Below, piece by piece: positions 22,922 to 40,049 of a DNA stretch of 64,000 nucleotides. The notes beneath the pieces were generated by a model that was given only the letters and a program-made list of their open reading frames with translations, was not told the origin of the DNA and made no database searches. The stretch is from an uncultured bacterium (GTDB taxonomy: Bacteria; Babelota; Babeliae; Babelales; RVW-14), in contig CAVXAT010000002.1 in the NCBI GenBank assembly GCA_963759805.1, positions 32,001 through 96,000 of the forward strand. Direction: 5' to 3'. Each line of letters opens with the position of its first letter. The stretch's first letter is position 1. A program made the translations under genes and the position numbers.

Positions 22922-25900
22922 ATGAAAAAGATTTTTCATGTTTTTTCGATGTTACTGTTGTTAGGTTCGTTACAAGTTGATCTTTGCGCAATGCAGGAAC
23001 CAGATGATGCAACGACTCCCGTTGAAATACCAGTAGATCATCCAAATTCCGGCCTGATAAACGGCCAGAGCATCTGTTATCTAAACGCTGTAATTCAATG
23101 TCTTTCAAATCTTAAAACTTTCAGAGAAAAATTGTTAGCCCACGAAGACACTTATCAGAACAATCCTCTTGTTTTAAATTTAATCAGATTATTCAAAGAC
23201 TTAAGAACAACCACAGAACCTGCAATACAAAATGACACCTTGATTGGCCATGTAAAAACGTTAATCACAAATCAATCAGGAAATGCACGAGAACACTTTC
23301 AAGATGCGGATGAAATTCTAACTCTGTTGTTAGGACAAATTAACAAACCAAACAAAATTTCTTTAGAGTTACAACTTGATCAGAAAGTTAAATGCCTTGG
23401 AGCTCATGGTGCAGCCGGTTGTCAGCACGAATCCCCAAAACATGAGACGCATGAAACAATTGCATTACCACTTGATGAAATTGCCACTCAAAATACACTT
23501 CAAGCATTGCTTGAAAGCTTTTTTACATCATCATTCGCACATGATTATGTTTGTGATGGTTGTGGTAAAAAAAATACATCTTTTAAAACTTCTAGAATTT
23601 CAAAAAACCAAGATGAATTAATTATCACGTTAAAAAGATTCAATTCAGATGGGACCAAGATAGATACATCTATTTCATTTCCAATGGAACTCGATTTAAA
23701 GCCTTATTCAACAGATGGGCTAAAACAACAAGCCGGCGTAGATCTTTCATATGAATTAGTTGGTTTTGTTTGTCATGGCGGTAACCATTATATTTCATTT
23801 GTAAGAGATTTTGGAAATGGGGAATGGTACATGTATAACGATTCGGCAGTCAGCGATGAAATAAATTTGCAACTTATACAAGGGATTACCACGACAGGTA
23901 GTTTTTCACTAAATTCTCAAATTTTCACACCATACATTTTGTTTTATCAAAAAAATGGAATCGGGGGGCAAACGCTTGCTCATCCAACAGCACAACAATC
24001 TGTAGATCAAGATGAAGGCGAAGATTGGGATTCATCAGATGGCGAGGATGAACTTCAGCCGCCAACAACTAAAGGCTTTTTTAGCTGGTTTCTTGGATGG
24101 GCTACCGGTAACAACCAAAGAGAAGACGAGCGAAGAAAACAAGAAGAGGTTAAATTGCAAGAAGAGGCGATAAAGAAACGTCAAGAGGAGAAACTAAGGA
24201 TGCGAAGGGAAACTAGACTACAAGAAGAAGTGATAGAAAAACGCCAAAACCTAGGACTCATGAAAGTCGAAGCACTCCCATATTTAAATTCAGTCGTACA
24301 GTGTCTTTCGAATCTTAAAAAATTTAAGACTAAACTATTTGCAAGTGAAAATGATTATAAAGATGATTTTTTAATTCTTAGCCTTATTAATCTTATCAAA
24401 AGACTGAAGAATTCTAGCGAATCATTAGGAAATCAAGATTTTGTAGAGCAAGCAAAGATTTTGGTGCAACAAAGTAAAAATAATGAAGTTGCACTTCAGG
24501 TGGCAGATGAATTTTTAAATTTGTTATTTGATCGTCTGCATACCCAAGACATGGAACCTCTTAATCTCCTAATTAATATAATTACCCAGTGCATAAAAAA
24601 CAAAGATATATCAGGTTGCGAATATTCTTTAGATGAAGATGGAGTTGTGCAACCCAAGACAAGCCTATGTTTTAAAGAATTAAAAAGTGTCCAAGAAATT
24701 TTGGCAAAGCAATTTTCACCTTCTTTTGATAAAGGGTACACCTGCAAATGTTGTCATAAAGCTGGAACTTCTGTTATTACACAGAAATTTTTACGCTGCC
24801 CTTCCGAATTAATAATTTCTTTACAACGATTTGATTCATCTGGAAATAAAGATTTATCGCCAGTTATTTTACCATTGATACTTGATTTGACCCCTTATCT
24901 TAGCCATGAATTACTACAACAAATCGATCAGGCTCCGTATGAATTAGTGGGCATTGTTTGTTGCAATCGAAACTCTCAATATTATTCTTACATGAAAAAT
25001 ATTGCATCAGATAAATGGTTCCGGTACAACGATGAGTCCGTTGTAGAGGTCAGCAATCAAGAAATTAAAACGCTGGCAGATTCCGGAATAGATTCGCAAA
25101 ATTTTGTGCCATACATTTTATTTTATGAATTAAAGGAGTCCGAATGCCATACAAGTGCATCTCAAGCGCAACAAAGTTCAACTGCAACGAAAGATCAAAG
25201 ATCAAACGCTAAAAACACACAAGAAATAATGGCTCAAATGACGAAACTTTGGAATATAAAGAAGCAACAAGAACGGGACCTTAAACGTGCTCAGGGCGTT
25301 GCAAAATCGGCTGATAAAAATCTAGTTAATGCGCAGTTGGATGGAGCCGATTTAACCGATTTGGATTTGAATGGGGCAGATTTAACGGGTGCGTCTTTAA
25401 TCGGTGCAACATTGGTTAGAACAAAATTGAATGGCACAATTTTGGCCAATGCAAAGTTAAATAATGCAATTATTTCGGATGTTCAATTATGCAATGCGAC
25501 ACTAAAAAACACAGATTTGAATAATTCAACAATAACGAATATAACCGCTCATAACATAACTATCTCAGATGGTACAAAATTTGAGAATGCAACAATAAGC
25601 TCGCTAAATCTAAAAAATATCAAACTACAAAATGTGTCTTTTGCAAATGCAACATTAAAAAATATCACATTTTCAACCTCATTAATTGATCATGTAAATA
25701 TGGCACACATACAAGCTGAGGAGTTATATTTAAATGAATCTTCGCTGACAAACATAGATTTCAGCAGGGCTTGCATTGTAGGTCTTGATATAAGCAATGC
25801 AAACATCATAGGAGATTGGTTAAATTTCAGATATGCAACGATAAAAACGGGGTGCATTAGGGGAACAACCACATCTAGAAGACCTAGCCCTGGCGAACGC

Positions 25901-26512
25901 TCAGATGGCATCACAGAAAAAGAAAATACAGGACTAATAATGGATACAGTAGGCGTTTCAACACTTGTGACATCTACAGCTTTTGGTACTGTTACTATTC
26001 CTATTCCGATTGTTGGATCTGCCGCTGGATTTTTCTATGGATTGTTTTTGGTTGGAGTTGAGCTTATCATTCACGATGAATACCTCGACTCAAAAAAAGA
26101 TTTTGGCGCTTCAAATATTAACAGCATTTTGCTCAATTCCGATTTTTATGGAGCATCATTACAAGACGTGATTGTGCAACATGTAAAGCTTGGTAATTGT
26201 ATGAATATTGGAAGAATTAGAAAAGCAGTTGGAACCAATTTTGATAACATTGTAAGTAGCAATCCAAAGGATTTGGACGATTTAAGACACAAGGGCGCTT
26301 GTGTAAATGAAATTCCATCAGACGAATTTAAAGTACTATGGCCTACAAAAGGAAACGATCAGAAAGTTTTTTGGGTCAAGCTACTTGCTGGTGCTGCGCA
26401 TGGAACCCTCTCAGGCACCATATCAAAAGTTGAGACAAATTTACGGGACAAACAACAAGAGGCAAAGTATAAGTCTTTTATATCTGAAGAAATACAAAAA
26501 ACAAGAAAATAA
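22922..26512 (+). CDS. Exported protein: USP/peptidase C19 domain, degenerate second USP domain, pentapeptide repeats, hydrophobic tail
   Basis: Cys box GLINGQSICYLNAVIQCL, QDADE, LKRF, His box HYISFV, WY.YNDS.V, PYILFY; second copy GLMKVEALPYLNSVVQCL...LQRF...WFRYNDESV...PYILFY; A(D/N)LxG-type repeats. Confidence 0.88.
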   Translation: MKKIFHVFSMLLLLGSLQVDLCAMQEPDDATTPVEIPVDHPNSGLINGQSICYLNAVIQCLSNLKTFREKLLAHEDTYQNNPLVLNLIRLFKDLRTTTEPAIQNDTLIGHVKTLITNQSGNAREHFQDADEILTLLLGQINKPNKISLELQLDQKVKCLGAHGAAGCQHESPKHETHETIALPLDEIATQNTLQALLESFFTSSFAHDYVCDGCGKKNTSFKTSRISKNQDELIITLKRFNSDGTKIDTSISFPMELDLKPYSTDGLKQQAGVDLSYELVGFVCHGGNHYISFVRDFGNGEWYMYNDSAVSDEINLQLIQGITTTGSFSLNSQIFTPYILFYQKNGIGGQTLAHPTAQQSVDQDEGEDWDSSDGEDELQPPTTKGFFSWFLGWATGNNQREDERRKQEEVKLQEEAIKKRQEEKLRMRRETRLQEEVIEKRQNLGLMKVEALPYLNSVVQCLSNLKKFKTKLFASENDYKDDFLILSLINLIKRLKNSSESLGNQDFVEQAKILVQQSKNNEVALQVADEFLNLLFDRLHTQDMEPLNLLINIITQCIKNKDISGCEYSLDEDGVVQPKTSLCFKELKSVQEILAKQFSPSFDKGYTCKCCHKAGTSVITQKFLRCPSELIISLQRFDSSGNKDLSPVILPLILDLTPYLSHELLQQIDQAPYELVGIVCCNRNSQYYSYMKNIASDKWFRYNDESVVEVSNQEIKTLADSGIDSQNFVPYILFYELKESECHTSASQAQQSSTATKDQRSNAKNTQEIMAQMTKLWNIKKQQERDLKRAQGVAKSADKNLVNAQLDGADLTDLDLNGADLTGASLIGATLVRTKLNGTILANAKLNNAIISDVQLCNATLKNTDLNNSTITNITAHNITISDGTKFENATISSLNLKNIKLQNVSFANATLKNITFSTSLIDHVNMAHIQAEELYLNESSLTNIDFSRACIVGLDISNANIIGDWLNFRYATIKTGCIRGTTTSRRPSPGERSDGITEKENTGLIMDTVGVSTLVTSTAFGTVTIPIPIVGSAAGFFYGLFLVGVELIIHDEYLDSKKDFGASNINSILLNSDFYGASLQDVIVQHVKLGNCMNIGRIRKAVGTNFDNIVSSNPKDLDDLRHKGACVNEIPSDEFKVLWPTKGNDQKVFWVKLLAGAAHGTLSGTISKVETNLRDKQQEAKYKSFISEEIQKTRK

Positions 26513-26537: not shown

Positions 26538-27524
26538 ATGAAATTCAAAAATGTTTTTTCACTCATTTTAATTTTAAACGCTGCAAACTTATTTGCATAT
26601 GACCAACAAACATATAAAGAACTGCTTGCTGGTGGCAAAAGGTTTGCAAATGCAGACTTGTCAAAAGCAAAAATCGAAAATATGGATTTATCAGATGTTA
26701 CTTTTGTGAATGTAAATTTAACTGATGCATGCTTTCATAATTCGATGCTTACAAATGTCACATTTGATTCATGTAATTTATCGGGTTCTATATTTTATGA
26801 TATGGTATTTAATAATTCCAAAATTTTAAACAAATCTAATTTGGCACATTCTATTTTTGAAAAGGTAATTTTTGATAGCTCAGAAATAAATAATTCATCA
26901 ATGGCTCATGTCAAATTGTCAGAAACTGATCTTGTGGCAGCTAGAATTTACAATGTTGACATGTACAACACCAAGCTTGAGTCTGTAAATTTTTCTGCGT
27001 GTACCCTGGAGCATATAAATTTCAGGGCAGCCAAACTCGAATTGGTAAGAATCTACGAAACAACTCAGATTGGTACTGATCTGATCTTTGATCAAGCAAC
27101 TCTTTCACAGTGCTGTTTCCTAGGCCAAAAGGAACGCAGTTCAGTTATAGGGGGCGACTTTTTTGGCACGACTATTATGCATAGCTACTTTGTAAATCTA
27201 AATTTTGATAACTGTACACGCTTAGATCAAGTTGGCGATGCAACAAAAAGTTTATTCGACAATATTTCCTCTATTAGTCCAAATGACCTAAGAATATTTG
27301 CTGAAAGGCTGAAATTTAAAGAGGCAAAAGTCAATGGCGAATGGACTAAAGACAAAGACTATTGGAGTAAATTTGAATCTCATTATTGCAAGCAATTTTT
27401 TGCGGCATTGTGGCCATCAGTAGCTTATTTAGGTACTTTCGCCTTTGTTGGATTGGTTTGTCCAGCTGCTGCACCTATAGCAGCATCTGCAGTATCTGGA
27501 GGAGTATCTGCAGTAGTTAACTAA
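26538..27524 (+). CDS. Exported pentapeptide-repeat protein
   Basis: Signal peptide; ADLSK/MDLSD/VNLTD/CNLSG repeats; C-terminal region resembles the end of the upstream protein. Confidence 0.85.
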   Translation: MKFKNVFSLILILNAANLFAYDQQTYKELLAGGKRFANADLSKAKIENMDLSDVTFVNVNLTDACFHNSMLTNVTFDSCNLSGSIFYDMVFNNSKILNKSNLAHSIFEKVIFDSSEINNSSMAHVKLSETDLVAARIYNVDMYNTKLESVNFSACTLEHINFRAAKLELVRIYETTQIGTDLIFDQATLSQCCFLGQKERSSVIGGDFFGTTIMHSYFVNLNFDNCTRLDQVGDATKSLFDNISSISPNDLRIFAERLKFKEAKVNGEWTKDKDYWSKFESHYCKQFFAALWPSVAYLGTFAFVGLVCPAAAPIAASAVSGGVSAVVN

Positions 27525-27564: not shown

Positions 27565-30500
27565 ATGAAATTTAAAAATATTTTGATTTATCTTTTTGCT
27601 GTAGGGCAGGTTGGTTTTGCATGGGGAATGGGAAGAACACAATTTGCTAGTTCGTGTACAGAGCTCTGGTTTCAGGGAAGCAGTATACAGGACCAGGCAC
27701 GTCCCACAACCTCTAGTGAATGGGGTATCAGAGTTAATTTACCTTCACGCAGCAGGTACACGAGCGAATCCTCATATTCACGGTCTAGCGGTCCTTTGAG
27801 AAAATGTTTTGCTAATTCACCAACGAAGGCTGTATTTAATTTACCTAATCTTGTGAGTTCTCATCAGTATAAAACTCTTGATAAGGCATTTAGTGCACTA
27901 CTAAATTCAGACGCTACTGTGAAAGCTGTACAAAATGACCCGAATGTTCTTGTACAATTGTATTCCGCATTGGCACAACTTCATGAGCAAATGGCTTTTC
28001 AGGATAAAAAGAACACTTTGGTTACAGATGGTACACACTGGTTTTTACAAAAACCAAATGGAAAACGGCTCGATTTAACATCAAAAGTGTCCAATGCCTC
28101 TTATGCAATAAACCAATTTGTCTATGAAATTAAAGATGAATTAGAAAGCAAAGGAATCCCTTTTGATCTTGTTTTGCGCAGCCATCGCGAATGTGTTGGT
28201 TTTTCTAAAGATGGCAAAAAAGTAATTCATCGATACTCTGGTCTCCCCGGATCCGGGCAGGAATATGTTCTTGATTTGATTGTATCCACGGAAGATGATG
28301 GATCCAAAAAGATTACTCACAAGATTAAGAATAAAAATAAAGTAAATGATAAAAATTTACGAAAACCAAAAGATGTACAACCGCCAGCTCCCACAATTCC
28401 ACATGCTCCAACTCCCACTCCAGATATCCTATACAAGGGCGTAATTTTATCCCAACAGCCTCTCTTGATTGATACAAGTGTTGATGCACGTTGTAAAGGC
28501 ACAATAAAAACTTACATGGACTCTCCTAAATTTGCCGAAAAGGCATATTCTCTTTTTAATTCCAAAGATGCATTTAGGGGAATCCGTTTTACAGAAAATG
28601 ATTTTAATTTAACAGAGAGGAGTCCTGATGGAACACTTGTCTATATTGCAGGAGCTTTAGTGGAACACGAAGATGGCACGAAAGAAGCTGGCGCTATTAG
28701 AATTGTTGTAAAACCTAATCCAGAAATGCCTGAAATAAGAGAGATACATTCTTATGTTGGAGAATTAAATAAAGATGTATCCAATGGGTTGGATGTTAAT
28801 CCGCTCACTCAGGACCGACCCGGCAAAAAGGACGATGGCGTTTCTTCTGATCCTAAAATCTCTCCCACACCTAAACACATCTTTGATATGTCAAAGCTTT
28901 TAGATTCTGATCTTAAGCAGATTGACCTACACCATTATATGTTGAATCAATCGACAAAACAATTTGTCAGATTTAACTCTCACATTGACAGCTTACAACA
29001 GGGTAGAGGAACACAAGCCGCAGATGGTTCTACTACAAAACCCCAGCAAGGTCCTAATACTGGTGCAGCTGGTGATAGAAAAGACAAAATAGCTCCCGAA
29101 AACGAATATACAGAAGCAGGTCAAACGCATAAAAACCTTGCGGGTCAGCATCAACTTGAAACTCAAGATCAAGATGATGAATTGCCCAAACAAGAATCCT
29201 CTCAGGCAGGGGCAGCTAATGTTGACGCCAAAGCTGCCGAAGAGGCAGCTGCAGCTAAAGCCCAAGCTGAAGCCGAAGAAACAGCCGCCAAAGCAGCTAA
29301 AGAAGAAGCCGACGCTATGGCAAAAAAAGCAGTCGATAAAAAAATAGCATCTGAAGCCTCAGCAAAGAAAACCAGAAGATCTAAAGCCATCCTAGCTCAA
29401 CAAAACAAAGATATAACCCAAAAATCTCTACACCAAGCTGAACAAATTGAAGCATTGGTAAATAAGGGGTTCACTAAAGATCTCGCAAAAATGAAAGTAT
29501 GCGCACCCAGAGAATACAGTGCATTTGTTAAATTGAGCGATAAACAGATTTTGCAACGTGAAGAGCTATCCACAGCTAAAACAGATGTAGGGGGCACAGC
29601 TAAGCCATCCCAGCCAGTTGAAATGTCACAACCAATCAGACTCACACTTGCAGATCGTTTTCAACAAGCAACTTCTGTTGATTCAGGAACTCAAGGAAAA
29701 CAACCAGCGCTTAATTTTTCGATAGAAGATCGAAACCGTGGATTCAAAGAGCGCATAGCACGCATGCAACAACACTCAACAAGCAGATTATCAGAACAAC
29801 CAAAAGCACCTGTAATACCAGAAGTACCGGTAAAACCAGTTGAAACGCCAACTCAGGCACCACAACCGCAACAACCAACATTTATAGAAAGAATTAGAGA
29901 GCGTGCTGCTGAAGTTATTGAAATGGCCAAAATACCAGCCCTGGAAACACTCAAAACCGTTGTGACATCTGCCACAGATAATCTTTTAAAATACTTTTTT
30001 ACTTCCCCTCCCACCATGGACGGAAAACATTTCTTTGGTGAAGGCCCAGAAGAGACAAGATATACTCCATATTTGGATAGGCCACTACTAAATTTGCAAA
30101 GTAAATTGCATCCAGACATGGAAATGCAAGACTCATCACAAAATCTAGCAACTGCAGCTGCTTCTTCTGGCGAACAGGAATATCCGATTATGTTCGATCC
30201 CACAGCTCGCCCAGTAAAAATAACGCACACTGGATATTCTTCATCTAATCCTACGGAAGTAGAAAAACCCTTTGTAATGCCTCACGATGTCGGCATTGAA
30301 GGACCAACTGCAACAACACAAACTGGTCACTTAAACCTGGAACAATTTAAACGCCACACAGACTACACGGCAAAGAAAAGTGCAGAATTGGCAGAGATTA
30401 CTCGTGATAACCCAACGCTGCAAAATACCTGCAAATTTGTGGATGCTCTGAATAGATTTGCTAACTTATATGCAGAGGCTGATGATGGGGTTGGAGCAAC

Positions 30501-31563
30501 CGCTTTGGGCAAAGCCGCACAAAACACATTGCGCAATGCACAAAGGGCTGCGACAGCATTGGGTAGAGGTGCAATTCGAGGTGCTGAGAAATTTGATCCC
30601 AAGGTTATGTTTGTTGCCAATGCAAAACTTGCAATGTTTGCAATTGGGGAAATTAGCAGGCAAGAAACTGTCGACCAGGCCTTTTTATCTTTCAATCCTG
30701 AACAAGCTGAGCAGGCGGCTTCGGCACATGCTCAACATTGCACAGAACAGTATCAAGCATTTTCAACGGCTGCCAAACAAACTCTTGAGCGGTTAAGGAG
30801 CATGCCATGGGAAGAAGTGCTTGAAAATGGTTCTGAGCTTGGTGTTGATCTTGTTATGCAAGGTGTGTTTATTAACGGACTGGGCAAACTTGGTGGAACA
30901 GCATTGCAGCGTTTTGCTGCATTAACATCGGATTTAAATGAAATTGTCAAAGCTGAAAAAATAGCCGCTGCCACTGGAAAGGCTTCCGCTCAAATTACAG
31001 AGCTTGGGCAACAGGTTGCTGTTGTAGGTAAACTTACTGAACAAGAGGGATCTGAAGTAGCAGGAAGAGTTGTTGGAATTATTAAAGATAATCCCGAGCT
31101 TATCCAGAGCGAATTTGGTTTTGTACAAACTGTAAGAGCTGTATCAAAAATTGAGCAAAAGCCACATTGGGAATCGCTTGCGCTTGACCCTGCCCATGGA
31201 AATAAAATAAGTATCAAAAGTATTGAGGAAGCTTTGGCTGGAATTGCTGCTGAAGAAAAAGGATTTTTACCAGGACCTATTAGGCGCGATCCGAGCGCAG
31301 CCGCAGAATTTATTGATACATTAGGAAGAGCTTGGGATGTTAAAACTCCACTATCACTTGCTCCCAATGGGCAACATGTTTTCAAAATCGACCAGGTATT
31401 TAGTAGTATCAAACGAGAACTAGGACTTGGCGAAAATGTCATCTTGAGTATGATTAAACTTAATAAAGAGGATGCGTTGTCTTTGATTGCAAAATTAAAA
31501 ACAGAATTGTCAGCAGCTGAGATCGAAAAAATTATTACTGTTTTTAGAGAGGACTTATTTTAA
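27565..31563 (+). CDS. Large exported polymorphic-toxin-like protein with a putative PD-(D/E)xK-type nuclease C-terminus
   Basis: GGAGGTTATC-ATG start at 27565; signal peptide; low-complexity linker; C-terminus LALDPAHG..EEA..G.....G....PIRRDP...AEFID..G..WDVK; small ORF immediately downstream. Confidence 0.72.
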   Translation: MKFKNILIYLFAVGQVGFAWGMGRTQFASSCTELWFQGSSIQDQARPTTSSEWGIRVNLPSRSRYTSESSYSRSSGPLRKCFANSPTKAVFNLPNLVSSHQYKTLDKAFSALLNSDATVKAVQNDPNVLVQLYSALAQLHEQMAFQDKKNTLVTDGTHWFLQKPNGKRLDLTSKVSNASYAINQFVYEIKDELESKGIPFDLVLRSHRECVGFSKDGKKVIHRYSGLPGSGQEYVLDLIVSTEDDGSKKITHKIKNKNKVNDKNLRKPKDVQPPAPTIPHAPTPTPDILYKGVILSQQPLLIDTSVDARCKGTIKTYMDSPKFAEKAYSLFNSKDAFRGIRFTENDFNLTERSPDGTLVYIAGALVEHEDGTKEAGAIRIVVKPNPEMPEIREIHSYVGELNKDVSNGLDVNPLTQDRPGKKDDGVSSDPKISPTPKHIFDMSKLLDSDLKQIDLHHYMLNQSTKQFVRFNSHIDSLQQGRGTQAADGSTTKPQQGPNTGAAGDRKDKIAPENEYTEAGQTHKNLAGQHQLETQDQDDELPKQESSQAGAANVDAKAAEEAAAAKAQAEAEETAAKAAKEEADAMAKKAVDKKIASEASAKKTRRSKAILAQQNKDITQKSLHQAEQIEALVNKGFTKDLAKMKVCAPREYSAFVKLSDKQILQREELSTAKTDVGGTAKPSQPVEMSQPIRLTLADRFQQATSVDSGTQGKQPALNFSIEDRNRGFKERIARMQQHSTSRLSEQPKAPVIPEVPVKPVETPTQAPQPQQPTFIERIRERAAEVIEMAKIPALETLKTVVTSATDNLLKYFFTSPPTMDGKHFFGEGPEETRYTPYLDRPLLNLQSKLHPDMEMQDSSQNLATAAASSGEQEYPIMFDPTARPVKITHTGYSSSNPTEVEKPFVMPHDVGIEGPTATTQTGHLNLEQFKRHTDYTAKKSAELAEITRDNPTLQNTCKFVDALNRFANLYAEADDGVGATALGKAAQNTLRNAQRAATALGRGAIRGAEKFDPKVMFVANAKLAMFAIGEISRQETVDQAFLSFNPEQAEQAASAHAQHCTEQYQAFSTAAKQTLERLRSMPWEEVLENGSELGVDLVMQGVFINGLGKLGGTALQRFAALTSDLNEIVKAEKIAAATGKASAQITELGQQVAVVGKLTEQEGSEVAGRVVGIIKDNPELIQSEFGFVQTVRAVSKIEQKPHWESLALDPAHGNKISIKSIEEALAGIAAEEKGFLPGPIRRDPSAAAEFIDTLGRAWDVKTPLSLAPNGQHVFKIDQVFSSIKRELGLGENVILSMIKLNKEDALSLIAKLKTELSAAEIEKIITVFREDLF
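30289..30520 (+). repeat. 232-bp direct repeat, copy 1 (inside the toxin gene)
   Basis: Aligns ungapped to 31987-32218 with about 13 mismatches by hand count. Confidence 0.92.
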
Positions 31564-31564
31564 T

Positions 31565-31903
31565 ATGGCAAACCTGATACTGAAAAATGACAAAGTTATA
31601 TGGAAGTGTTCCAACTCCATGCTGGCTCTTATTTATGAAACAATTATGGGAATTATGAATGATAAAAAAATGAATAAAGAGTCCGCAGTTTGCAAATTTG
31701 TGGAAAAATTAAATCAGGATATCTATGGAGATGGATGTATTTCTATTGATCTGGATGATTATCTAAAAAACAATGACGATATACTTGTTTTTGCAAAGTT
31801 ATTTAAGGAATCAATAGAACAGCTTAAGAAAAAATTTGAATGGCAAGAAGAACTATATAGCCACACATTAAAATTATATCAACAGCTGACATGCCCTGAT
31901 TAA
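31565..31903 (+). CDS. Putative immunity protein for the upstream toxin
   Basis: 112 aa, starts 1 nt after the toxin stop, followed by a terminator; function inferred from position. Confidence 0.62.
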   Translation: MANLILKNDKVIWKCSNSMLALIYETIMGIMNDKKMNKESAVCKFVEKLNQDIYGDGCISIDLDDYLKNNDDILVFAKLFKESIEQLKKKFEWQEELYSHTLKLYQQLTCPD

Positions 31904-31937
31904 TTATCATAGAGCATAATGTTTTTGTCATTTTCAT

Positions 31938-31971
31938 GCCTCGGCATGTATAAAAGTGCTGGGGCTTTTTT
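31938..31971 (+). terminator. Intrinsic terminator after immunity gene 1
   Basis: gcctcggca / tgctggggc stem then T6. Confidence 0.65.
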
Positions 31972-31986
31972 GCTGCACTCGCTACC

Positions 31987-32218
31987 GTTGGCATGGAAGG
32001 ACCAACTGCAACAACGCAGACTGGTCGCTTAAACCTGGAACAATTTAAACTCCACACAGACTACACGGCAAAGAAAAGTGCAGAATTGGCAGAAATTACT
32101 CGTGATAACCCAACGCTGCAAAATGCCTGCAAATTTGTGGATGCTCTCAACAGATTTGCTAACTTGTACGCAGAGGCTGATGATGGGGTTGGAGCAAACG
32201 CTTTGGGCAAAGCCGCAC
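31987..32218 (+). repeat. 232-bp direct repeat, copy 2 (start of the orphan cassette)
   Basis: See copy 1; an ATT codon of copy 1 corresponds to the ATG at 31993. Confidence 0.92.
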
Positions 32219-33301
32219 GACAAACAGTGCATTATGCCGAAAATATAACAAAAATATTTGGCGGTCACATTCAAGAAGCTCTTCTTGGCGTTTCAGATTC
32301 AGGCCTGGATCACCTTGACTTTGGAACAGAAGCTGCGTCTCATCCACAAGAAACTTTAGTAAATATGGCTAATGGCCTCAAAGAGCTTACAATTTTTACT
32401 GCAAAAATTATGGCAATAGGAGAGATGTCTCTAGATAATTCAGAATTAGCACTTGATGCATTTAATAGAGAAATTAGGCCAACGGTGCAACCATTGTACG
32501 ATAGACTCGAAGCTATGACGGGACCGGAAAGAACCAGATTTATAACACGTACATTCTGTAATCTTTTTTTGGGGAAATATCTATCGATTGGCTTGCAAGC
32601 GGCATCCCTTGGTATATCTGTACCAAACATTCAGCAATTTAGGTTAGCAACTGCGGCAGCAAAAGAGTTTTATGGATCTTTGATTAATGAAGCAGAAATA
32701 GTAAGTAGAATTCCAAATTTTGCGAATTTGCCACAAAATATGCAAACTCTTTTATCTCCTCTTATATCGATGACTGAGAATCCTGGTAAGTTGGTTGAAT
32801 TAGGAATCAACAAAGGCCAAGAATTTGCGAGAAGGATTGCAATAGCACTTGGGCAAAATCCAGAGTTAGTCGTTACAGAAGGCTCATTTGATGGTGCTGT
32901 GGCAAGACTTGTGGGTGATTTCGAAAAAGAAGGTGCGGCGGCAGCTGCAGCCGATGATTTGGCAAGTTTTAGAAAAAGTGAGCGTGGAGCCTCTTCAGGT
33001 ACTGCTGTTCAAGCTGAGCAGAGTTATGCTAAAATGTTTGAGCAGAGAATTAGCAAGATGCCAGTGGGTGAAAGAGTTGCAGCGGTGACAGAAGAGGCTC
33101 AAAGAATAGCTGCGGCTAGAGGATGGGAAAAAATGGGTCAAATATCTAGAAGAAATGGGGAAAGAATTGTTTACAAAGATAAAAATGCATCGAAACTTTA
33201 TTCTGTGGATATATACTGACCCCATAAAACTAGACAGTGCAACTTGAGAAAATAAGTACTTTAAAAATATTAGTTATAACAATGAGCCCGGGGGGCATTA
33301 A

Positions 33302-33577
33302 ATGAGTAACAAAGTAAGCAGAACCCACAGCAACAAATTTAAACTAAAAGTTGCATTGGCAGCTATAAAGGCTGATAGGCCAATAGCTGAATTATGCCAA
33401 GAATTTGCATTAGCGACAAGTCAAATTTATGCATGGAAAAAACGGCTTGAAGATCGAGGCATTGAAGTTTTTTCGAGTGAAAAAATGGCTGCAAAAAAAA
33501 GTTTAGATGTTGAAAAGTTTCATGTGATTATAGGCAAGCTTATTGTAGAACGTGAGTCATTATTGCGGGCGCTTTAA
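33302..33577 (+). CDS. IS3-type OrfA HTH protein, copy 1
   Basis: R.HS..FKLKVAL.AIK....IAELC.EF.....QIY.WKK. Confidence 0.8.
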   Translation: MSNKVSRTHSNKFKLKVALAAIKADRPIAELCQEFALATSQIYAWKKRLEDRGIEVFSSEKMAAKKSLDVEKFHVIIGKLIVERESLLRAL

Positions 33578-33678
33578 TGCAATAAACGCAAATGGATAAA
33601 CTGTGTACAACGACAATAATAATGAATTAGCATGAGAATGTTAAATCTAAAAATTTGCTTTACAAGAAAGGCATTCTC

Positions 33679-33957
33679 ATGAGTGATGACACGAAAAAAA
33701 GTCATGATGACAAGCTTAAACTTAAGGTGGCTTTAGCTATGATAAAGGCCGACAAATCAGTTGATACCATCTGTAGAGAATTTAATATTTCAACATGCCA
33801 AGCATATGCATGGAAGCAACACCTAGAAGAGCATGGCAACGAACTTTTTGCAGACAAAAGAAAAGTTAAAAAAGAAGAAACATATGACAAGATTTTGGCA
33901 GACCTTGAACAAGTAAAGGAAGAGCGCAATTTTTTAGTACAAGTGCTCAGTCGCTAG
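33679..33957 (+). CDS. IS3-type OrfA HTH protein, copy 2 (probably fused to OrfB by -1 frameshift)
   Basis: KLKVAL.MIK....V..IC.EF......Y.WK; ERNFL end with T TTT TTA slippery heptamer at 33930-33936; OrfB is in the -1 frame. Confidence 0.82.
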   Translation: MSDDTKKSHDDKLKLKVALAMIKADKSVDTICREFNISTCQAYAWKQHLEEHGNELFADKRKVKKEETYDKILADLEQVKEERNFLVQVLSR

Positions 33958-33965
33958 ATATCCAA

Positions 33966-34886
33966 GTGCGCAAGCAATGGATTGAGCACAACAACAAATT
34001 GAACTTGTCCAGAAAATGCGATCTGCTCGGTATAAATCGAAGTAGCCTTTATTACAAGCCAAAGAAGGCCAACAACCAAGACGAGGTGATTATGGATGAG
34101 ATACGCAACGAATATGAGAGACATCCATTTTATGGATATCGAAAAATACACGAAGTTCTTATCGAAAAAAGCTTTAACCACAACATTAAAAGAACACAGC
34201 GGCTAATGACGTTGACAGGTCTTTGTGCAGTTGCCCCTTATAAAAAAACTAGCATTCCAAACAAGGAACACAAGGTGTACAAATATCTTTTAAGAGGATT
34301 ACGAGTTTGCCGCCCAAACCAAGTCTGGAAAACAGATATCACATACGTAAAAATAAGAGGTGGGTTTGTTTATTTGGTTTGTCTTATCGATGTTTTTAGT
34401 CGCAAGATTATGGGATGGGCATTGTCACCATATCTCGATACAGACGTTTGTCTTGAAGCATTGGAAATGGCTCTCGTACTCGGTAAGCCTGAGATTTTAA
34501 ATAGTGATCAAGGGTGCCAGTTTACAAGTGAAAGATGGGTTGCTCGTTTAGAAAAAGAAGGTATCAAAATTAGTATGGATGGAATAGGTCGATGGGCAGA
34601 CAACATCATTATTGAACGATTCTGGCGAACTATTAAATATGAAGCACTGTGTTTTTATGTTCTTGAAAACATTGCTGAGACGCGATTAATTATAAAAAAC
34701 TATATCAACTTTTATAATAGAGAACGCTTTCACCAATCACTCGAATATAAAAAACCAGATGAAGTTTACTATGGAGCTATCATTGCAGTAGACCAATCTG
34801 ATTTTACTTTCGAATCATTGGCTTTTGTATGTAATAGCAAAATCATCGTTCAACAAAATAAATCAATGGGGATACAAATGGCCTGA
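33966..34886 (+). CDS. IS3-family DDE transposase OrfB
   Basis: HPFYGYR, PNQVW.TDITY, ID.FSR.I.GW, NSDQG.QFTS, DNIIIERFWRT.KYE, R.HQSL.Y..P. Confidence 0.95.
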   Translation: MRKQWIEHNNKLNLSRKCDLLGINRSSLYYKPKKANNQDEVIMDEIRNEYERHPFYGYRKIHEVLIEKSFNHNIKRTQRLMTLTGLCAVAPYKKTSIPNKEHKVYKYLLRGLRVCRPNQVWKTDITYVKIRGGFVYLVCLIDVFSRKIMGWALSPYLDTDVCLEALEMALVLGKPEILNSDQGCQFTSERWVARLEKEGIKISMDGIGRWADNIIIERFWRTIKYEALCFYVLENIAETRLIIKNYINFYNRERFHQSLEYKKPDEVYYGAIIAVDQSDFTFESLAFVCNSKIIVQQNKSMGIQMA

Positions 34887-35080
34887 TAAAAATTCTGAAA
34901 TATAAGTTAAAAATTTGTCTTGACAATGGGGGTCACTATAATACACAGCATGGACGATTTGAAATATTAAATGAAGAAGGAAAACATTTGGGAGAAGTTG
35001 ATTTTGATTTCAATTTTACAAAAGAACGTGATGCATCAGGTAGCCACGATTTAAATACGCGATAAGAAAGGTTTAAAATA

Positions 35081-35626
35081 ATGGTAGACATTGTTTCTAA
35101 AACAATCGATTATTTTTACAAACAAAAAAATTATAATGCCTTTAAGGAATGTTGTAAAAATCCATTGAATTTGTTTCTGGAGTTACAGCAATATATAGAT
35201 AGAAACGGATTAAATTCGTCTGGAGGACCCGATAATAAGTACTACCCGGCCAGAGATTGGCACATACATTTTAATGATTATAAGAAAGGTGAATTTGAAA
35301 TTTCTTATACAACAGTTCTTAATATTTCAAAACTTGCACCATTATATTATGTTCAACATGAATTTTCAGTTAAAGATAAAGATGATGATAGAATGACTCC
35401 TGTCCTAGATGGTTTTAGTAATCACCCATATACAAAGAAACAGTTTGTTTTGCATGATAAAATTTCATCTGTTTTAAATAAAAAAGGGTATCATGAACTC
35501 GAGTATGTTGACATAAGTGAGGCGGTAGAAGGTTTTAAAATGCCAGAGGGGGTAACTATCTTTGGGCCTAATGTTACAGTTGAAGATTTATTGTTTGCAG
35601 ATTTATTTGATGTACGTAATAAGTAG
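35081..35626 (+). CDS. Putative immunity protein for the orphan RNase cassette
   Basis: Starts 15 nt after the reconstructed toxin stop, with a GAAAGG RBS; followed by a terminator like the one after immunity gene 1. Confidence 0.65.
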   Translation: MVDIVSKTIDYFYKQKNYNAFKECCKNPLNLFLELQQYIDRNGLNSSGGPDNKYYPARDWHIHFNDYKKGEFEISYTTVLNISKLAPLYYVQHEFSVKDKDDDRMTPVLDGFSNHPYTKKQFVLHDKISSVLNKKGYHELEYVDISEAVEGFKMPEGVTIFGPNVTVEDLLFADLFDVRNK

Positions 35627-35661
35627 GCGTTTTCAATAAATAAGCTTTATTAACACTTTAT

Positions 35662-35693
35662 GCCCTGGCCGGTAAAACGGCTGGGCTTTTTTT
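35662..35693 (+). terminator. Intrinsic terminator after immunity gene 2
   Basis: gccctggccg / cggctgggc stem then T7. Confidence 0.65.
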
Positions 35694-35753: not shown

Positions 35754-37133
35754 TTAGTTTCTAGCGTTTTCTCGAGATAGTCTTAATGCCTCATCTCGTG
35801 CATTCGCAAACTCTGTTCTTGCTTCTGCTAATTTATGAGATATATCAAGCCTATTTGCCTGTAGGATTGTGGCTTGTTCTTTGAATTTGTTCTCCTCCAT
35901 TCTTCTATCAAATTCGCGACTAACAATTTGCTGAATTCTTTGTGCTTCTTTTTCAGCATAAAATTGCCTTCCCAGCCATGAATCTCGTGGAGGGTGCATC
36001 CTTTCATCAAGAGGTATCCATGACTCATTTGCGTGAATGTTTTGCCTAAAAGATACAGCACGTTCTTCCAAGGCTGTGGTTTGTATAGCCGCTTTTATTT
36101 GGACCAATTTTCCGTCTAGAACGGAAATCTCTGATTGTTTTCGATCAGCTTCTTCCCATGCCAACCTGCTGGGATCATTTGCTGGTCTACCTAGTGCTTT
36201 TTCTCGCAACTGTGTTTCTTCTGCACGCCTGTATTCTACCTCTGCCCATTCACAAGCAGCTTCTTCATCTCTAATTTTTTGTAGTCGTGCTTCTTCTGCT
36301 TGCCTGCTGGCTTGCTCTTCTTCTAGAATTTTTCGCTTACGAGCTTCCTCCGCTTCTCTACGAACATGCTCTTCATCTCGGATTTTTTGTAATCGTGCTT
36401 CTTCTACTTGCTTGCGCACTCGTTCTTCTTCTAAGGCCTTTCTTTGAAGAGCTCCCTCAGCCTGCCTATGAGCAGTCTCTTCTTTAAAAAATGCTTCTTT
36501 TATTTTGTTAGTCCCATAAAGATCTTTTATCGACATAATAATGCTTAGCCCCAAAGCAACTCCGTACAATATCTGTTCTGGACTCTTATCTTTACTGATA
36601 ATTATATTATCAAATAACCGAAATGCGGAATTCAATGACTTACACTTTAATCTAAAATCTGCATCTTCAATTGTAGCCCTATCTTTAAGTGAAGCAAATA
36701 ATGCAGTTAGGCCTTCGATAAATGGAATTAATCCCGTGTGAAAAGTTTTAAGAAATCCTTCTAATTTTTTTATATCTTCCGAATTTTGAGTTATATCTTC
36801 AGGTTTGTTAAATAAATCAACTAAATGTGTAACGAAACGTACTCCATCATAGGCTGCCCAAATATAATCGTACTTATGAAATTCCAATTCTCCATTCTTA
36901 TTAATTATAGAAAGTACTTCACTTGACAATCGAAGAACATCTACTGATAAATTCAAAATATGATGGTACTTTTTACTAGATTCGGGGCTTAACTTATTTT
37001 TAATTGCAAGCGTCGGAATTCTTAAAAGTGCAACAATTGATTCAACATTGTTTAGATCTATTTCAGAAAATAAATTGCTTGAATATGTGCTTGTGCTGAA
37101 AAAAAGAATAAGCATAACTATTTTTTTAAGCAT
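35754..37133 (-). CDS. Hypothetical exported protein with charged coiled-coil repeats
   Basis: Signal peptide; repeated EEARLQKIRDEE-like units. Confidence 0.75.
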   Translation of the reverse strand: MLKKIVMLILFFSTSTYSSNLFSEIDLNNVESIVALLRIPTLAIKNKLSPESSKKYHHILNLSVDVLRLSSEVLSIINKNGELEFHKYDYIWAAYDGVRFVTHLVDLFNKPEDITQNSEDIKKLEGFLKTFHTGLIPFIEGLTALFASLKDRATIEDADFRLKCKSLNSAFRLFDNIIISKDKSPEQILYGVALGLSIIMSIKDLYGTNKIKEAFFKEETAHRQAEGALQRKALEEERVRKQVEEARLQKIRDEEHVRREAEEARKRKILEEEQASRQAEEARLQKIRDEEAACEWAEVEYRRAEETQLREKALGRPANDPSRLAWEEADRKQSEISVLDGKLVQIKAAIQTTALEERAVSFRQNIHANESWIPLDERMHPPRDSWLGRQFYAEKEAQRIQQIVSREFDRRMEENKFKEQATILQANRLDISHKLAEARTEFANARDEALRLSRENARN

Positions 37134-38854: not shown

Positions 38855-39256
38855 TTACAAAAACAATTGATAGTGAGTGTTAAAAAGCTTGGCAAGTTTT
38901 TGTGCCATCTTCTTTCCAATAACTCTCTTCCCGTGTTCCATCTGAGAAACATGGCTTTGACGAATATTGAGTTTTTTAGCTAGTTCAGCTTGTGTCATGC
39001 CATCACGAGATCTAAAGCCACGAATAGTGGTCCCTACTTTTCCATATTTCTGATGCAAATTTCTGAATACTTCATCTGCCGGAATAAGTTCTTCATCATC
39101 ATTTAAAACTTTGAATGGCTTGAGCTGCTCAAACAGTTCTAGTGCTGACTTGCGAGGAAGTAAAAATTTTGTGTTTAATTTATCATGAATCGTAACTTCA
39201 ATAAGATTGTCAGTAAGGGGATTTTTCATGCGTTCCGACATAATACACCTCAACAA
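38855..39256 (-). CDS. XRE-family HTH antitoxin (HigA-like)
   Basis: IRG.R.R.GMTQ.ELA..L.I.Q.HVS.ME.GKR.IGK; start uncertain. Confidence 0.8.
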   Translation of the reverse strand: MLRCIMSERMKNPLTDNLIEVTIHDKLNTKFLLPRKSALELFEQLKPFKVLNDDEELIPADEVFRNLHQKYGKVGTTIRGFRSRDGMTQAELAKKLNIRQSHVSQMEHGKRVIGKKMAQKLAKLFNTHYQLFL

Positions 39257-39494
39257 TTTGAATTTTTTTATTTATCACTTCCCAGCAAATAACATATGTT
39301 GGCTTTCCATTTTTAATATGGCAGTGATAACAATTTTCAGTCCCACCAAGTTTGCTAAAGTTTTTCCAATTATGGCGCAATGGACCTAACTTTCTTATTT
39401 CCTGCACCAAGGTTTGAGCAGCCTCTTGAACGGATATTGGCAAAGCATCAAATTGCTTTCTTGCCTTCTTATTAAAATAGACATTCCAATTCAC
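39210..39494 (-). CDS. RelE/HigB-like toxin
   Basis: W.V.F.KKA.KQ...LP, YHCH....PTYV..W, I.EV.YVGTHE; toxin-first arrangement with an XRE gene. Confidence 0.78.
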   Translation of the reverse strand: MNWNVYFNKKARKQFDALPISVQEAAQTLVQEIRKLGPLRHNWKNFSKLGGTENCYHCHIKNGKPTYVICWEVINKKIQIVEVYYVGTHEKSPY

Positions 39495-39708: not shown

Positions 39709-40049
39709 AACTTCATTTCTTATTTTTCTTACTTCTTCTGCAAACTTAAGCTCTCGCTCTTTTTGGGTTGTACACTTCTCTGAGCTTTCTTAGAAGAGCT
39801 TCATCCGCTTCTCTACGAGCAGTTTCTTCATCTCTTAATTTTTGTAATCTTGCTTCTTCTGCTGCTTGCTGGCGCGCACGTTCTTCTTCTTGAGCTTTAC
39901 TTTAAGAGCAGCTTCCTCCGCTTCTCTACGAGCAGTCTCTTCATCTCTTAATTTTTGTAATCTTGCTTCTTCTGCTGCTTGCTGGCGCGCACGTTCTTCT
40001 TCTTGGGCCATTATTTTAAGACCTTCCTCCACTTCTCTACGAGCAGTTC
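39709..40049 (-). pseudogene. Frameshifted fragment of a coiled-coil repeat gene related to 35754-37133
   Basis: Units at 39805, 39918 and 40029 (periods 113 and 111 bp) encoding EEARLQKLRDEETARREAEE; begins right after the metG stop; no 5' part. Confidence 0.65.

Follow-up and report, generated by a model that had tools for sequence, protein, structure and literature searches.

Among described polymorphic toxins, those closest to the system considered here fall into a class dependent on Sec and the type II secretion system (T2SS), for which Zhang et al. (2012; PMC3482391) gave lineage-specific domains (MAFB-N, Microscilla-N and APD1/2) and expected more; the words 'TM6' and 'pentapeptide' are absent from the part of that text available to us. 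MafB has been described by Jamet et al. (PMC4287609), and three polymorphic toxin systems have been reported in Candidatus Bodocaedibacter vickermanii (Midha et al., PMC8163844). The subject of the present analysis is a locus of a Candidatus Babeliales bacterium, lying in a 64,000-nucleotide stretch of contig CAVXAT010000002.1 (positions 32,001 to 96,000), the whole of which is called the window. The locus encodes a protein of 1332 amino acids (aa) with a nuclease-like C-terminal tip, a small downstream gene and an orphan C-terminal cassette, and on sequence evidence it is a real polymorphic toxin-immunity system: three features of such systems, namely variable C-terminal tips, a co-varying downstream immunity gene and orphan cassettes bearing a carrier repeat, were found. 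We consider it very probable that the locus belongs to a Babelota-wide family in which a helical core is joined to many tips, each with its own small gene, and in which the toxin would be exported by Sec, the tip would cut the tRNA of rival bacteria, the small gene would block the tip and tips would be swapped by recombination. Babelota (Dependentiae, TM6) parasitise protists from within the cell (PMC6561590, PMC4378268), and the word toxin is absent from the available text of a comparative genomics paper on the phylum (PMC4776705). In the main texts of openly accessible journals no description was found joining the phylum with toxin-immunity systems, and the phylum-wide family is apparently undescribed in print.

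The features of the locus are as follows; G149 is a genome of the same genus.

27565..31563, + strand: full-length polymorphic toxin gene (1332 aa) with a signal-like N-terminus, a variable region of ~750 aa, a conserved core and a nuclease tip
27565..27627, + strand: likely Sec signal peptide of about 21 aa, recognised by eye and as the sole hydrophobic peak of the protein
30289..30520, + strand: repeat copy 1 (aa 909-986), which codes for the greater part of the core's first three-helix bundle
30289..31128, + strand: all-helical pre-toxin core of ~290 aa, ending at NPEL; the family marker
31135..31563, + strand: tip 1, a PD-(D/E)XK-type nuclease with the predicted fold of Burkholderia CdiA-CT tRNases
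31565..31903, + strand: immunity candidate 1 (112 aa)
31938..31965, + strand: terminator-like hairpin 1
31987..32218, + strand: repeat copy 2, with which the orphan cassette starts, lacking a Shine-Dalgarno (SD)-like motif
31993..33211, + strand: left piece of the orphan cassette (a core that has diverged, then the opening part of a colicin-E3-like tip), matching the full-length gene of G149
33212..34940, + strand: IS3-type insertion sequence of 1729 bp with inverted ends and a 3-bp target duplication
33302..33577 and 33655..33957, + strand: two OrfA-like genes of the IS3-type element
33966..34886, + strand: OrfB of the same element
34941..35065, + strand: right piece of the orphan cassette, the end of the colicin-E3-like tip (Pfam Cytotoxic E 0.027 for the piece)
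35081..35626, + strand: immunity candidate 2 (181 aa)
35664..35685, + strand: terminator-like hairpin 2

An earlier sequence-only reading of this DNA had proposed the 1332-, 112- and 181-aa open reading frames (ORFs), two similar terminators and the lack of any known delivery domain, and all of this was borne out. The long ORF is preceded by GGAGG; the two hairpins are alike and belong to 12 terminator-like sites returned by a hairpin scan, against 7.0 +/- 2.8 in shuffles; a Pfam scan of the full 1332-aa protein returned 0 families, and Pfam, NCBIfam and PDB searches gave no known delivery domain. What that reading had missed is that the N-terminal ~750 aa are variable rather than constant. 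Even within the genus this part is poorly conserved, the likeness between the window protein and that of G149 being confined to the signal region, a patch of 80 aa with 31% and, from aa ~780 on, the remainder of the sequence. The N-termini of carriers are signal-like, as judged by eye and hydropathy only, and the 1332-aa protein has no Pfam domain; the Sec/T2SS-dependent class is marked by an N-terminal signal peptide and no other trafficking domain.

The conserved part of these proteins is the core. A profile of it (alignment A5; aa 909-1188 in the window protein) was built by iteration, two early hits (L074, L076) being excluded as doubtful, and was searched against 261 Babelota genomes, of which 189 are of good quality; this set is the scope of the genome-wide profile search. 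At E 0.001 the profile matched 64 of the 261 genomes (46 of the 189 of good quality) in 13 of 21 families, and 34 genomes matched at E 1e-9 or better. Profile rows came from 21 of the 64 matching genomes, the other 43 being independent of the profile. The repeat region alone, used as query, matched in 5 of the 261, the source genome G000 among them. It had been proposed that the family is lineage-specific with the 77-aa repeat region as its marker: the family exists, less narrow than was thought, and its marker is the ~290-aa core, of which the repeat is the first three-helix bundle. By this profile evidence the core family spans Babelota. The weaker matches may include chance helical ones, and two genomes outside the profile were opened. 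G132 (E 1e-4) holds a pentapeptide gene, a 1001-aa gene that itself scored no match, and five orphan cassettes, and G121 (E 7e-10) holds three full-length copies with differing ends. The three copies of G121 (L116, 4911-14947) are tandem paralogues, 92-95% identical over 1.5 kb, whose tips and next genes differ, one tip being Ntox35-like. G123 (L117, 6252-16001) has a carrier of > 1649 aa with a partial duplicate cassette, adjoined by a gene with a 99-bp tandem repeat.

Searches with the core against Pfam, NCBIfam and PDB sequences gave no consistent family, NCBIfam yielding only scattered single weak matches, and no match was found to phages, plasmids or viral contigs. An insensitive word-index search with the core profile returned 4 proteins, one of them named Ca. 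Dependentiae. The structural model of the core is all-helical (predicted local distance difference test, pLDDT, 71.7; predicted template modelling score, pTM, 0.49), and the repeat spans most of its best-predicted part, a three-helix bundle. Foldseek returned nothing for this model at E 0.001. For residues 3-95 a wide structure search found nothing beyond three-helix bundles of a generic kind (best Z 11.4, with a designed protein), and this does not speak for a new fold.

The C-termini beyond the core are highly diverse. The check proposed earlier, for variable C-termini with downstream small ORFs among homologues, gave 43 cassettes consisting of a complete tip and a neighbour gene within 150 bp, and these fell into 25 tip clusters and 24 neighbour clusters. 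The neighbour family was common to 25 of 25 same-tip pairs as against 9 of 878 different-tip pairs, a co-variation that none of 10,000 shuffles reached (best 7), kin among the cassettes not being independent. All 9 exceptions stem from one merge of two groups and are probably a linkage artefact. Pfam cut-offs were passed by 12 of 43 tips scanned (EndoU 4, RNAse_A_bac 3, Ntox35 2, and one each of Cytotoxic, CdiA_C and DUF6883) and by 8 of 43 downstream genes (CdiI_ImmP 3, Cys_rich_CPCC 2, and one each of Imm8, WapI and DUF4926). In a tree of 28 cores, which has several long branches and unsure deep placement, the same tip type occurs on distant branches, and two near-identical cores of G150 carry different tips. 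Carrier repeats accompany orphan cassettes in the window, G156, G132 and G150. In G156 a full gene is joined by four orphan cassettes; a small gene stands after each of these (one of the small genes being CdiI_ImmP, E 1e-38), and the repeats, of 420-480 bp, are 82-90% alike. It is likely from these comparisons that tips are exchanged by recombination. At a related locus, G142 carries a third tip. The toxin region of G142 is flanked by two copies of a gene pair (L008, 3527-4380 and 14910-15958) that by eye is RNA-ligase-like plus GIY-YIG-like, which suggests a mobile island or an assembly repeat.

The nuclease-like character claimed for the tip of the main gene is supported at the level of predicted fold. 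The model of tip 1 (pLDDT 91.6), compared by VIA search, matched the CdiA-CT structures 5J4A (Z 11.3, root-mean-square deviation 2.0, 102 residues aligned) and 4G6V (Z 9.7), the next row having a Z of 6.9. The title of 5J4A names a tRNA nuclease, and the tip 1 profile aligned to it with E 0.021; the Pfam model PF18664 (E479 type) gave no match to tip 1. In the atlas, tip 1 adjoins CdiA_C_tRNase clusters (0.95; the family is on 23% of members). Residues E1222, E1230, R1241, D1258 and K1260 are invariant across 22 sequences. Tip 1 is predicted, from its fold, to cut tRNA. Relatives of this tip terminate an RHS protein (34%), MuF proteins (45-49%) and genes in 16 of the 261 Babelota genomes; none was found in viral contigs.

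BLAST placed homologues of the 112-aa protein, which is matched by no Pfam family, behind the tip in 7 of 31 loci (26-81%; possibly two of the seven are one sequence), and a profile did so in G108 and G111 as well. A model of the complex between tip 1 and the 112-aa protein scored 0.69, the best of 3 controls scoring 0.00; among solved pairs 116 of 157 reach the mark used for this score, among mismatched pairs 2 of 215. Between runs the contacts agreed by at least 88%, with a partner pLDDT of at least 88. Residues 55-58 of the immunity candidate sit on the D-x-K strand of tip 1 in the model, and the 112-aa protein is predicted to bind the tip over this motif, at the active site. The pair also moves as a unit: tip 1 and its immunity gene show 85% DNA identity to a metagenome contig and occur in G132 as an orphan, and in G150 the same cassette stands on another carrier, with 83.5% DNA identity over window 31133-31878, starting just after NPEL. 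There is a second exchange point directly after NPEL. Two further observations concern relatives of tip 1. In metagenome loci without a Babelota core, a small pentapeptide-repeat gene comes next after the tip 1 relative in 11 of 12 scanned (L094-L096, L099, L100, L102 and L104-L108), and these pentapeptide proteins are candidate immunity proteins of a CdiA-type nuclease; Babelota instead use the unrelated 112-aa family in this position. In other Babelota families tip 1 and immunity 1 are found on carriers of 1000-1450 aa (L114 2977-7326, L115 2880-7178 and G260, the last with 4 matches); the two that were opened showed no match to the core profile or Pfam, and such proteins are possibly a second unrecognised carrier type.

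The second half of the locus bears the record of an exchange. As had been claimed, the two repeats (232 bp) are about 94% alike: they differ at 13 positions (94.4% identity; 8 codon differences synonymous, 5 non-synonymous), lie 1698 bp apart and are each in frame. The orphan, as also claimed, has no evident ribosome binding site, an SD-like motif having been looked for ahead of its ATG and none seen; NPEL precedes both tips. The RNase-like tip foreseen for the orphan proved to be colicin-E3-like. In G149 the full-length gene ends in an intact tip of the orphan type, followed by an orthologue of the 181-aa ORF; identity is 57% for the tips, across 143 aa in which X stands for the break, and 59% for the ORFs, across 181 aa. 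This intact tip passes Pfam Cytotoxic (E 1.7e-7) and aligns weakly to colicin E3 (E 0.09).

The orphan is not the continuous C-terminus it had been taken for, since a 1729-bp element that was overlooked splits its tip. The orphan ORF ends at 33219, the last 40 codons of the tip lie at 34943-35065, and the break falls within the Asp-x-Gln-His motif. Members of the IS3 family have OrfA (helix-turn-helix, HTH) and OrfB (rve) genes, terminal inverted repeats and a target duplication of 3-4 bp. All of these are present in the element, for which Pfam gave HTH_Tnp_1 twice and then rve/HTH_21; its two tandem OrfA-like genes and its TA-type ends, beginning TATA, are atypical. The source genome holds 5 identical copies, and among the other four 3 have both flanks, of which 2 show a clean 3-bp duplication. 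Relatives of the element in soil and lake assemblies stop at the identical base. A promoter-like site at 34915-34942 (10 of 12) spans the right end of the insertion sequence and could drive the 181-aa gene, though 27 such sites were found against 25.3 expected. Reads from 4 of 11 listed runs covered almost only the insertion sequence and contained no joints. Recombination between the repeats had been proposed to swap the tip. A deletion of 1698 bp between them would be in frame, but because the insertion sequence splits the orphan tip it would now fuse the main gene to a tip truncated inside the catalytic motif.

The sequence of events can be tentatively ordered. The cassette of G150 is alike from NPEL on while the orphan corresponds to the resident tip of G149, and on this ground we somewhat favour a history in which an incoming tip 1 cassette displaced the resident tip, which was later split. 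A cassette of repeat, tip 1 and immunity 1 would have entered by a single crossover at the repeat, pushing the resident colicin-E3-like tip to the orphan position; the insertion sequence would later have split that tip, the orphan's immunity gene staying intact. In a less favoured but possible reverse history, G149 would be the product of the deletion.

Upstream of the toxin gene lie two further genes of secreted type.

22922..26512, + strand: secreted-type protein with two USP (UCH) domains and a pentapeptide-repeat region, first of the same-strand cluster (Pfam UCH E 2e-60 in two stretches; Pentapeptide E 7e-19)
26538..27524, + strand: secreted-type pentapeptide-repeat protein directly upstream of the toxin, a candidate partner (Pfam Pentapeptide_4 E 6e-18)

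G149 has the same upstream genes and G156 a UCH-pentapeptide fusion, deubiquitinase domains being fused or adjacent to pentapeptide genes in the window, G149 and G156. A pentapeptide gene stands directly upstream in 8 of the 19 carriers with a listed upstream gene (one of the 19, a 61-aa ORF, was unscanned) and in two further loci, L010 and L113 (10 in total); the carriers with such a neighbour are mostly long ones. The 22922-26512 protein has a hydrophobic glycine-rich stretch near its C-terminus, and in G152 a PDZ domain lies within a similar pentapeptide protein. The double-USP/pentapeptide proteins are a possible modular family of host effectors.

An inventory of secretion genes in the source genome returned 3 secretins, 2 Omp85 genes, a PilB/GspE-like ATPase and pilin-like genes. 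VipB of type VI secretion systems (T6SS; control found) and VirB4 were not found in this genome, which is 88.7% complete. No CdiB/ShlB gene lies at the locus, and the genome search for one was empty, as was its control. The inventory agrees with the T2SS reported in the phylum (PMC4776705, PMC4378268), which is given as the sole secretion system detected in B. massiliensis (PMC4378268), and with the vesicles that Chromulinavorax is reported to release (PMC6561590). After export by Sec the toxin may leave through the T2SS or in outer-membrane vesicles, a step that we hold to be about evenly balanced. Display of the toxin, or the choice of its target, might then fall to the variable N-terminal part and to the pentapeptide-repeat proteins encoded upstream, and the helical core might aid the tip in crossing membranes. 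Once inside a rival the tip would cut tRNA, the 112-aa protein blocking it in the producer, and the targets would be related Babelota or other bacteria sharing one protist cell. A more ambitious proposal, which we regard as rather unlikely, is that pentapeptide beta-helix proteins and the helical-core toxin form one Sec/T2SS-exported machine in the protist, delivering host-directed deubiquitinases together with exchangeable nucleases to act on co-infecting bacteria or on the mitochondrion of the host.

Several points weigh against the reading of a Babelota-wide family of exported toxins aimed at rival bacteria. As many as 31 of the 43 tips fall below every Pfam cut-off. Confidence in the model of the core is no more than moderate, so that a role of the core in entry is conjectural, and the pass of the complex model may, for a CdiA-CT-like tip, partly reflect solved complexes. 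Most short carriers have no pentapeptide neighbour, which is therefore not essential for the whole family. Since the genome is incomplete, the missing secretion systems are not proven absent. Lastly, the N-terminal 750 aa vary even within the genus, unlike those of MafB.

It may also be that the toxins act on the protist host, cutting cytosolic or mitochondrial tRNA or rRNA for lysis, take-over or addiction, with immunity protecting the producer before export. Intracellular parasitism is strict in Babelota, replicating Chromulinavorax is enveloped by the mitochondrion of its host (PMC6561590), the same-strand upstream gene has eukaryote-directed deubiquitinase domains, and an addiction role has been proposed for the polymorphic toxins of the Bodo endosymbiont (PMC8163844). 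Host killing alone, however, needs no 25 tip types with antidotes; rapid tip exchange, matched and retained orphan immunity genes, and tip families common to CdiA, Rhs and MuF fit bacterial competition, and we regard the host as an improbable target.

Still less probable is that the family is a distant member of a known Sec-dependent one, MafB-like or with a PT-TG-like pre-toxin region, lying beyond the reach of the libraries. The atlas feature search led to a MafB cluster (0.86; 108 of 256 features) and a PT-TG cluster (0.86), although a score below 0.9 counts as no more than a lead, and the degree of recognition was low (1477). The gene order resembles the mafA-mafB-mafI-cassettes arrangement (PMC4287609), and the Babelota toxin shares with MafB/MafI of Neisseria a likely signal peptide, a lineage-restricted conserved domain, a variable nuclease tip, an immunity gene, downstream cassettes and a partner gene upstream in some classes only. 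However, none of 28 cores matched PF06255 (DUF1020/MafB) or PF14449 at E 0.05, and PF06255 gave no match in the 1332-aa protein at E 1; a genome search for MafB was empty, its control also being without a match. The conserved domain of the Babelota toxin stands directly before the tip rather than after the signal peptide, the N-terminus being variable, and its upstream partner is a pentapeptide-repeat protein (with a deubiquitinase or PDZ domain in some loci) instead of the MafA lipoprotein. The host of the family is, moreover, a phylum of intracellular protist parasites. That the locus is merely decaying, a chance partial duplication and an insertion sequence with selection gone, is scarcely credible: an active element interrupts the orphan tip and the UCH-pentapeptide gene of G149 lies in two ORFs, but the main gene and both small genes are intact, the catalytic-type residues of tip 1 are invariant in 22 relatives and the same anatomy recurs in 13 families.

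Other features of the window are apart from the toxin locus. Coiled-coil repeats rich in Glu, Arg and Ala at 36229-36482 and 39792-40000 are common to a 459-aa gene and a second region; copies of 96 bp at 39792 and 39905 are 96% alike at a spacing of 113 bp, no multiple of three; and at 38855-39494 an HTH gene comes after a small RelE-like gene, and by eye the two make up a toxin-antitoxin pair.

The family occurs in about one in four of the species sampled. Its presence implies fighting between these parasites, whose genomes are small, and other bacteria, probably within shared protist cells, and it gives a kin-discrimination marker for a phylum that is uncultured. For toxin discovery the core offers a new handle, as the number of tips below the Pfam cut-offs attests. 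Complete genomes with the family (G121, G123 and G252) make approachable the question of how a nuclease exported by Sec enters a rival without a known injection machine.

Comparison with known systems places the family among polymorphic toxins while setting its carrier apart. The exchange point in CdiA is marked by VENN; here NPEL marks it. With CdiA/CdiI of B. pseudomallei (E479 and 1026b; 5J4A and 4G6V) the locus shares the fold predicted for tip 1, the invariant E and D-x-K, and the order of toxin, immunity gene and orphan, whereas CdiA/CdiB differ in that the Babelota toxin has no haemagglutinin repeats or TPS domain and no CdiB neighbour. With colicin E3 (Tox-ColE3, PF09000, 1E44) only the catalytic domain is common: the orphan tip and its intact counterpart in G149 bear the R, Dxx+H, E motif given by Zhang et al. 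(PMC3482391), the window copy is split by the insertion sequence, and for the 181-aa neighbour there is no match among colicin immunity families. Rhs and MuF systems have in common with it the family of tip 1 (P0002, P0006, P0007), orphan cassettes and C-terminal displacement; in contrast to Rhs/T6SS effectors the toxin has no RHS/YD, PAAR or VgrG domain, and by Pfam it has no LXG, WXG100 or Phage_Mu_F domain. The systems of Ca. Bodocaedibacter vickermanii (PMC8163844) are likewise those of a protist endosymbiont, with unrecognised carriers and orphan modules, but that bacterium belongs to another phylum and has a T6SS, and its systems look unrelated, by their description only. Judged in this way from sequence, the Babelota family is not MafB, CdiA, Rhs or MuF but works like MafB.

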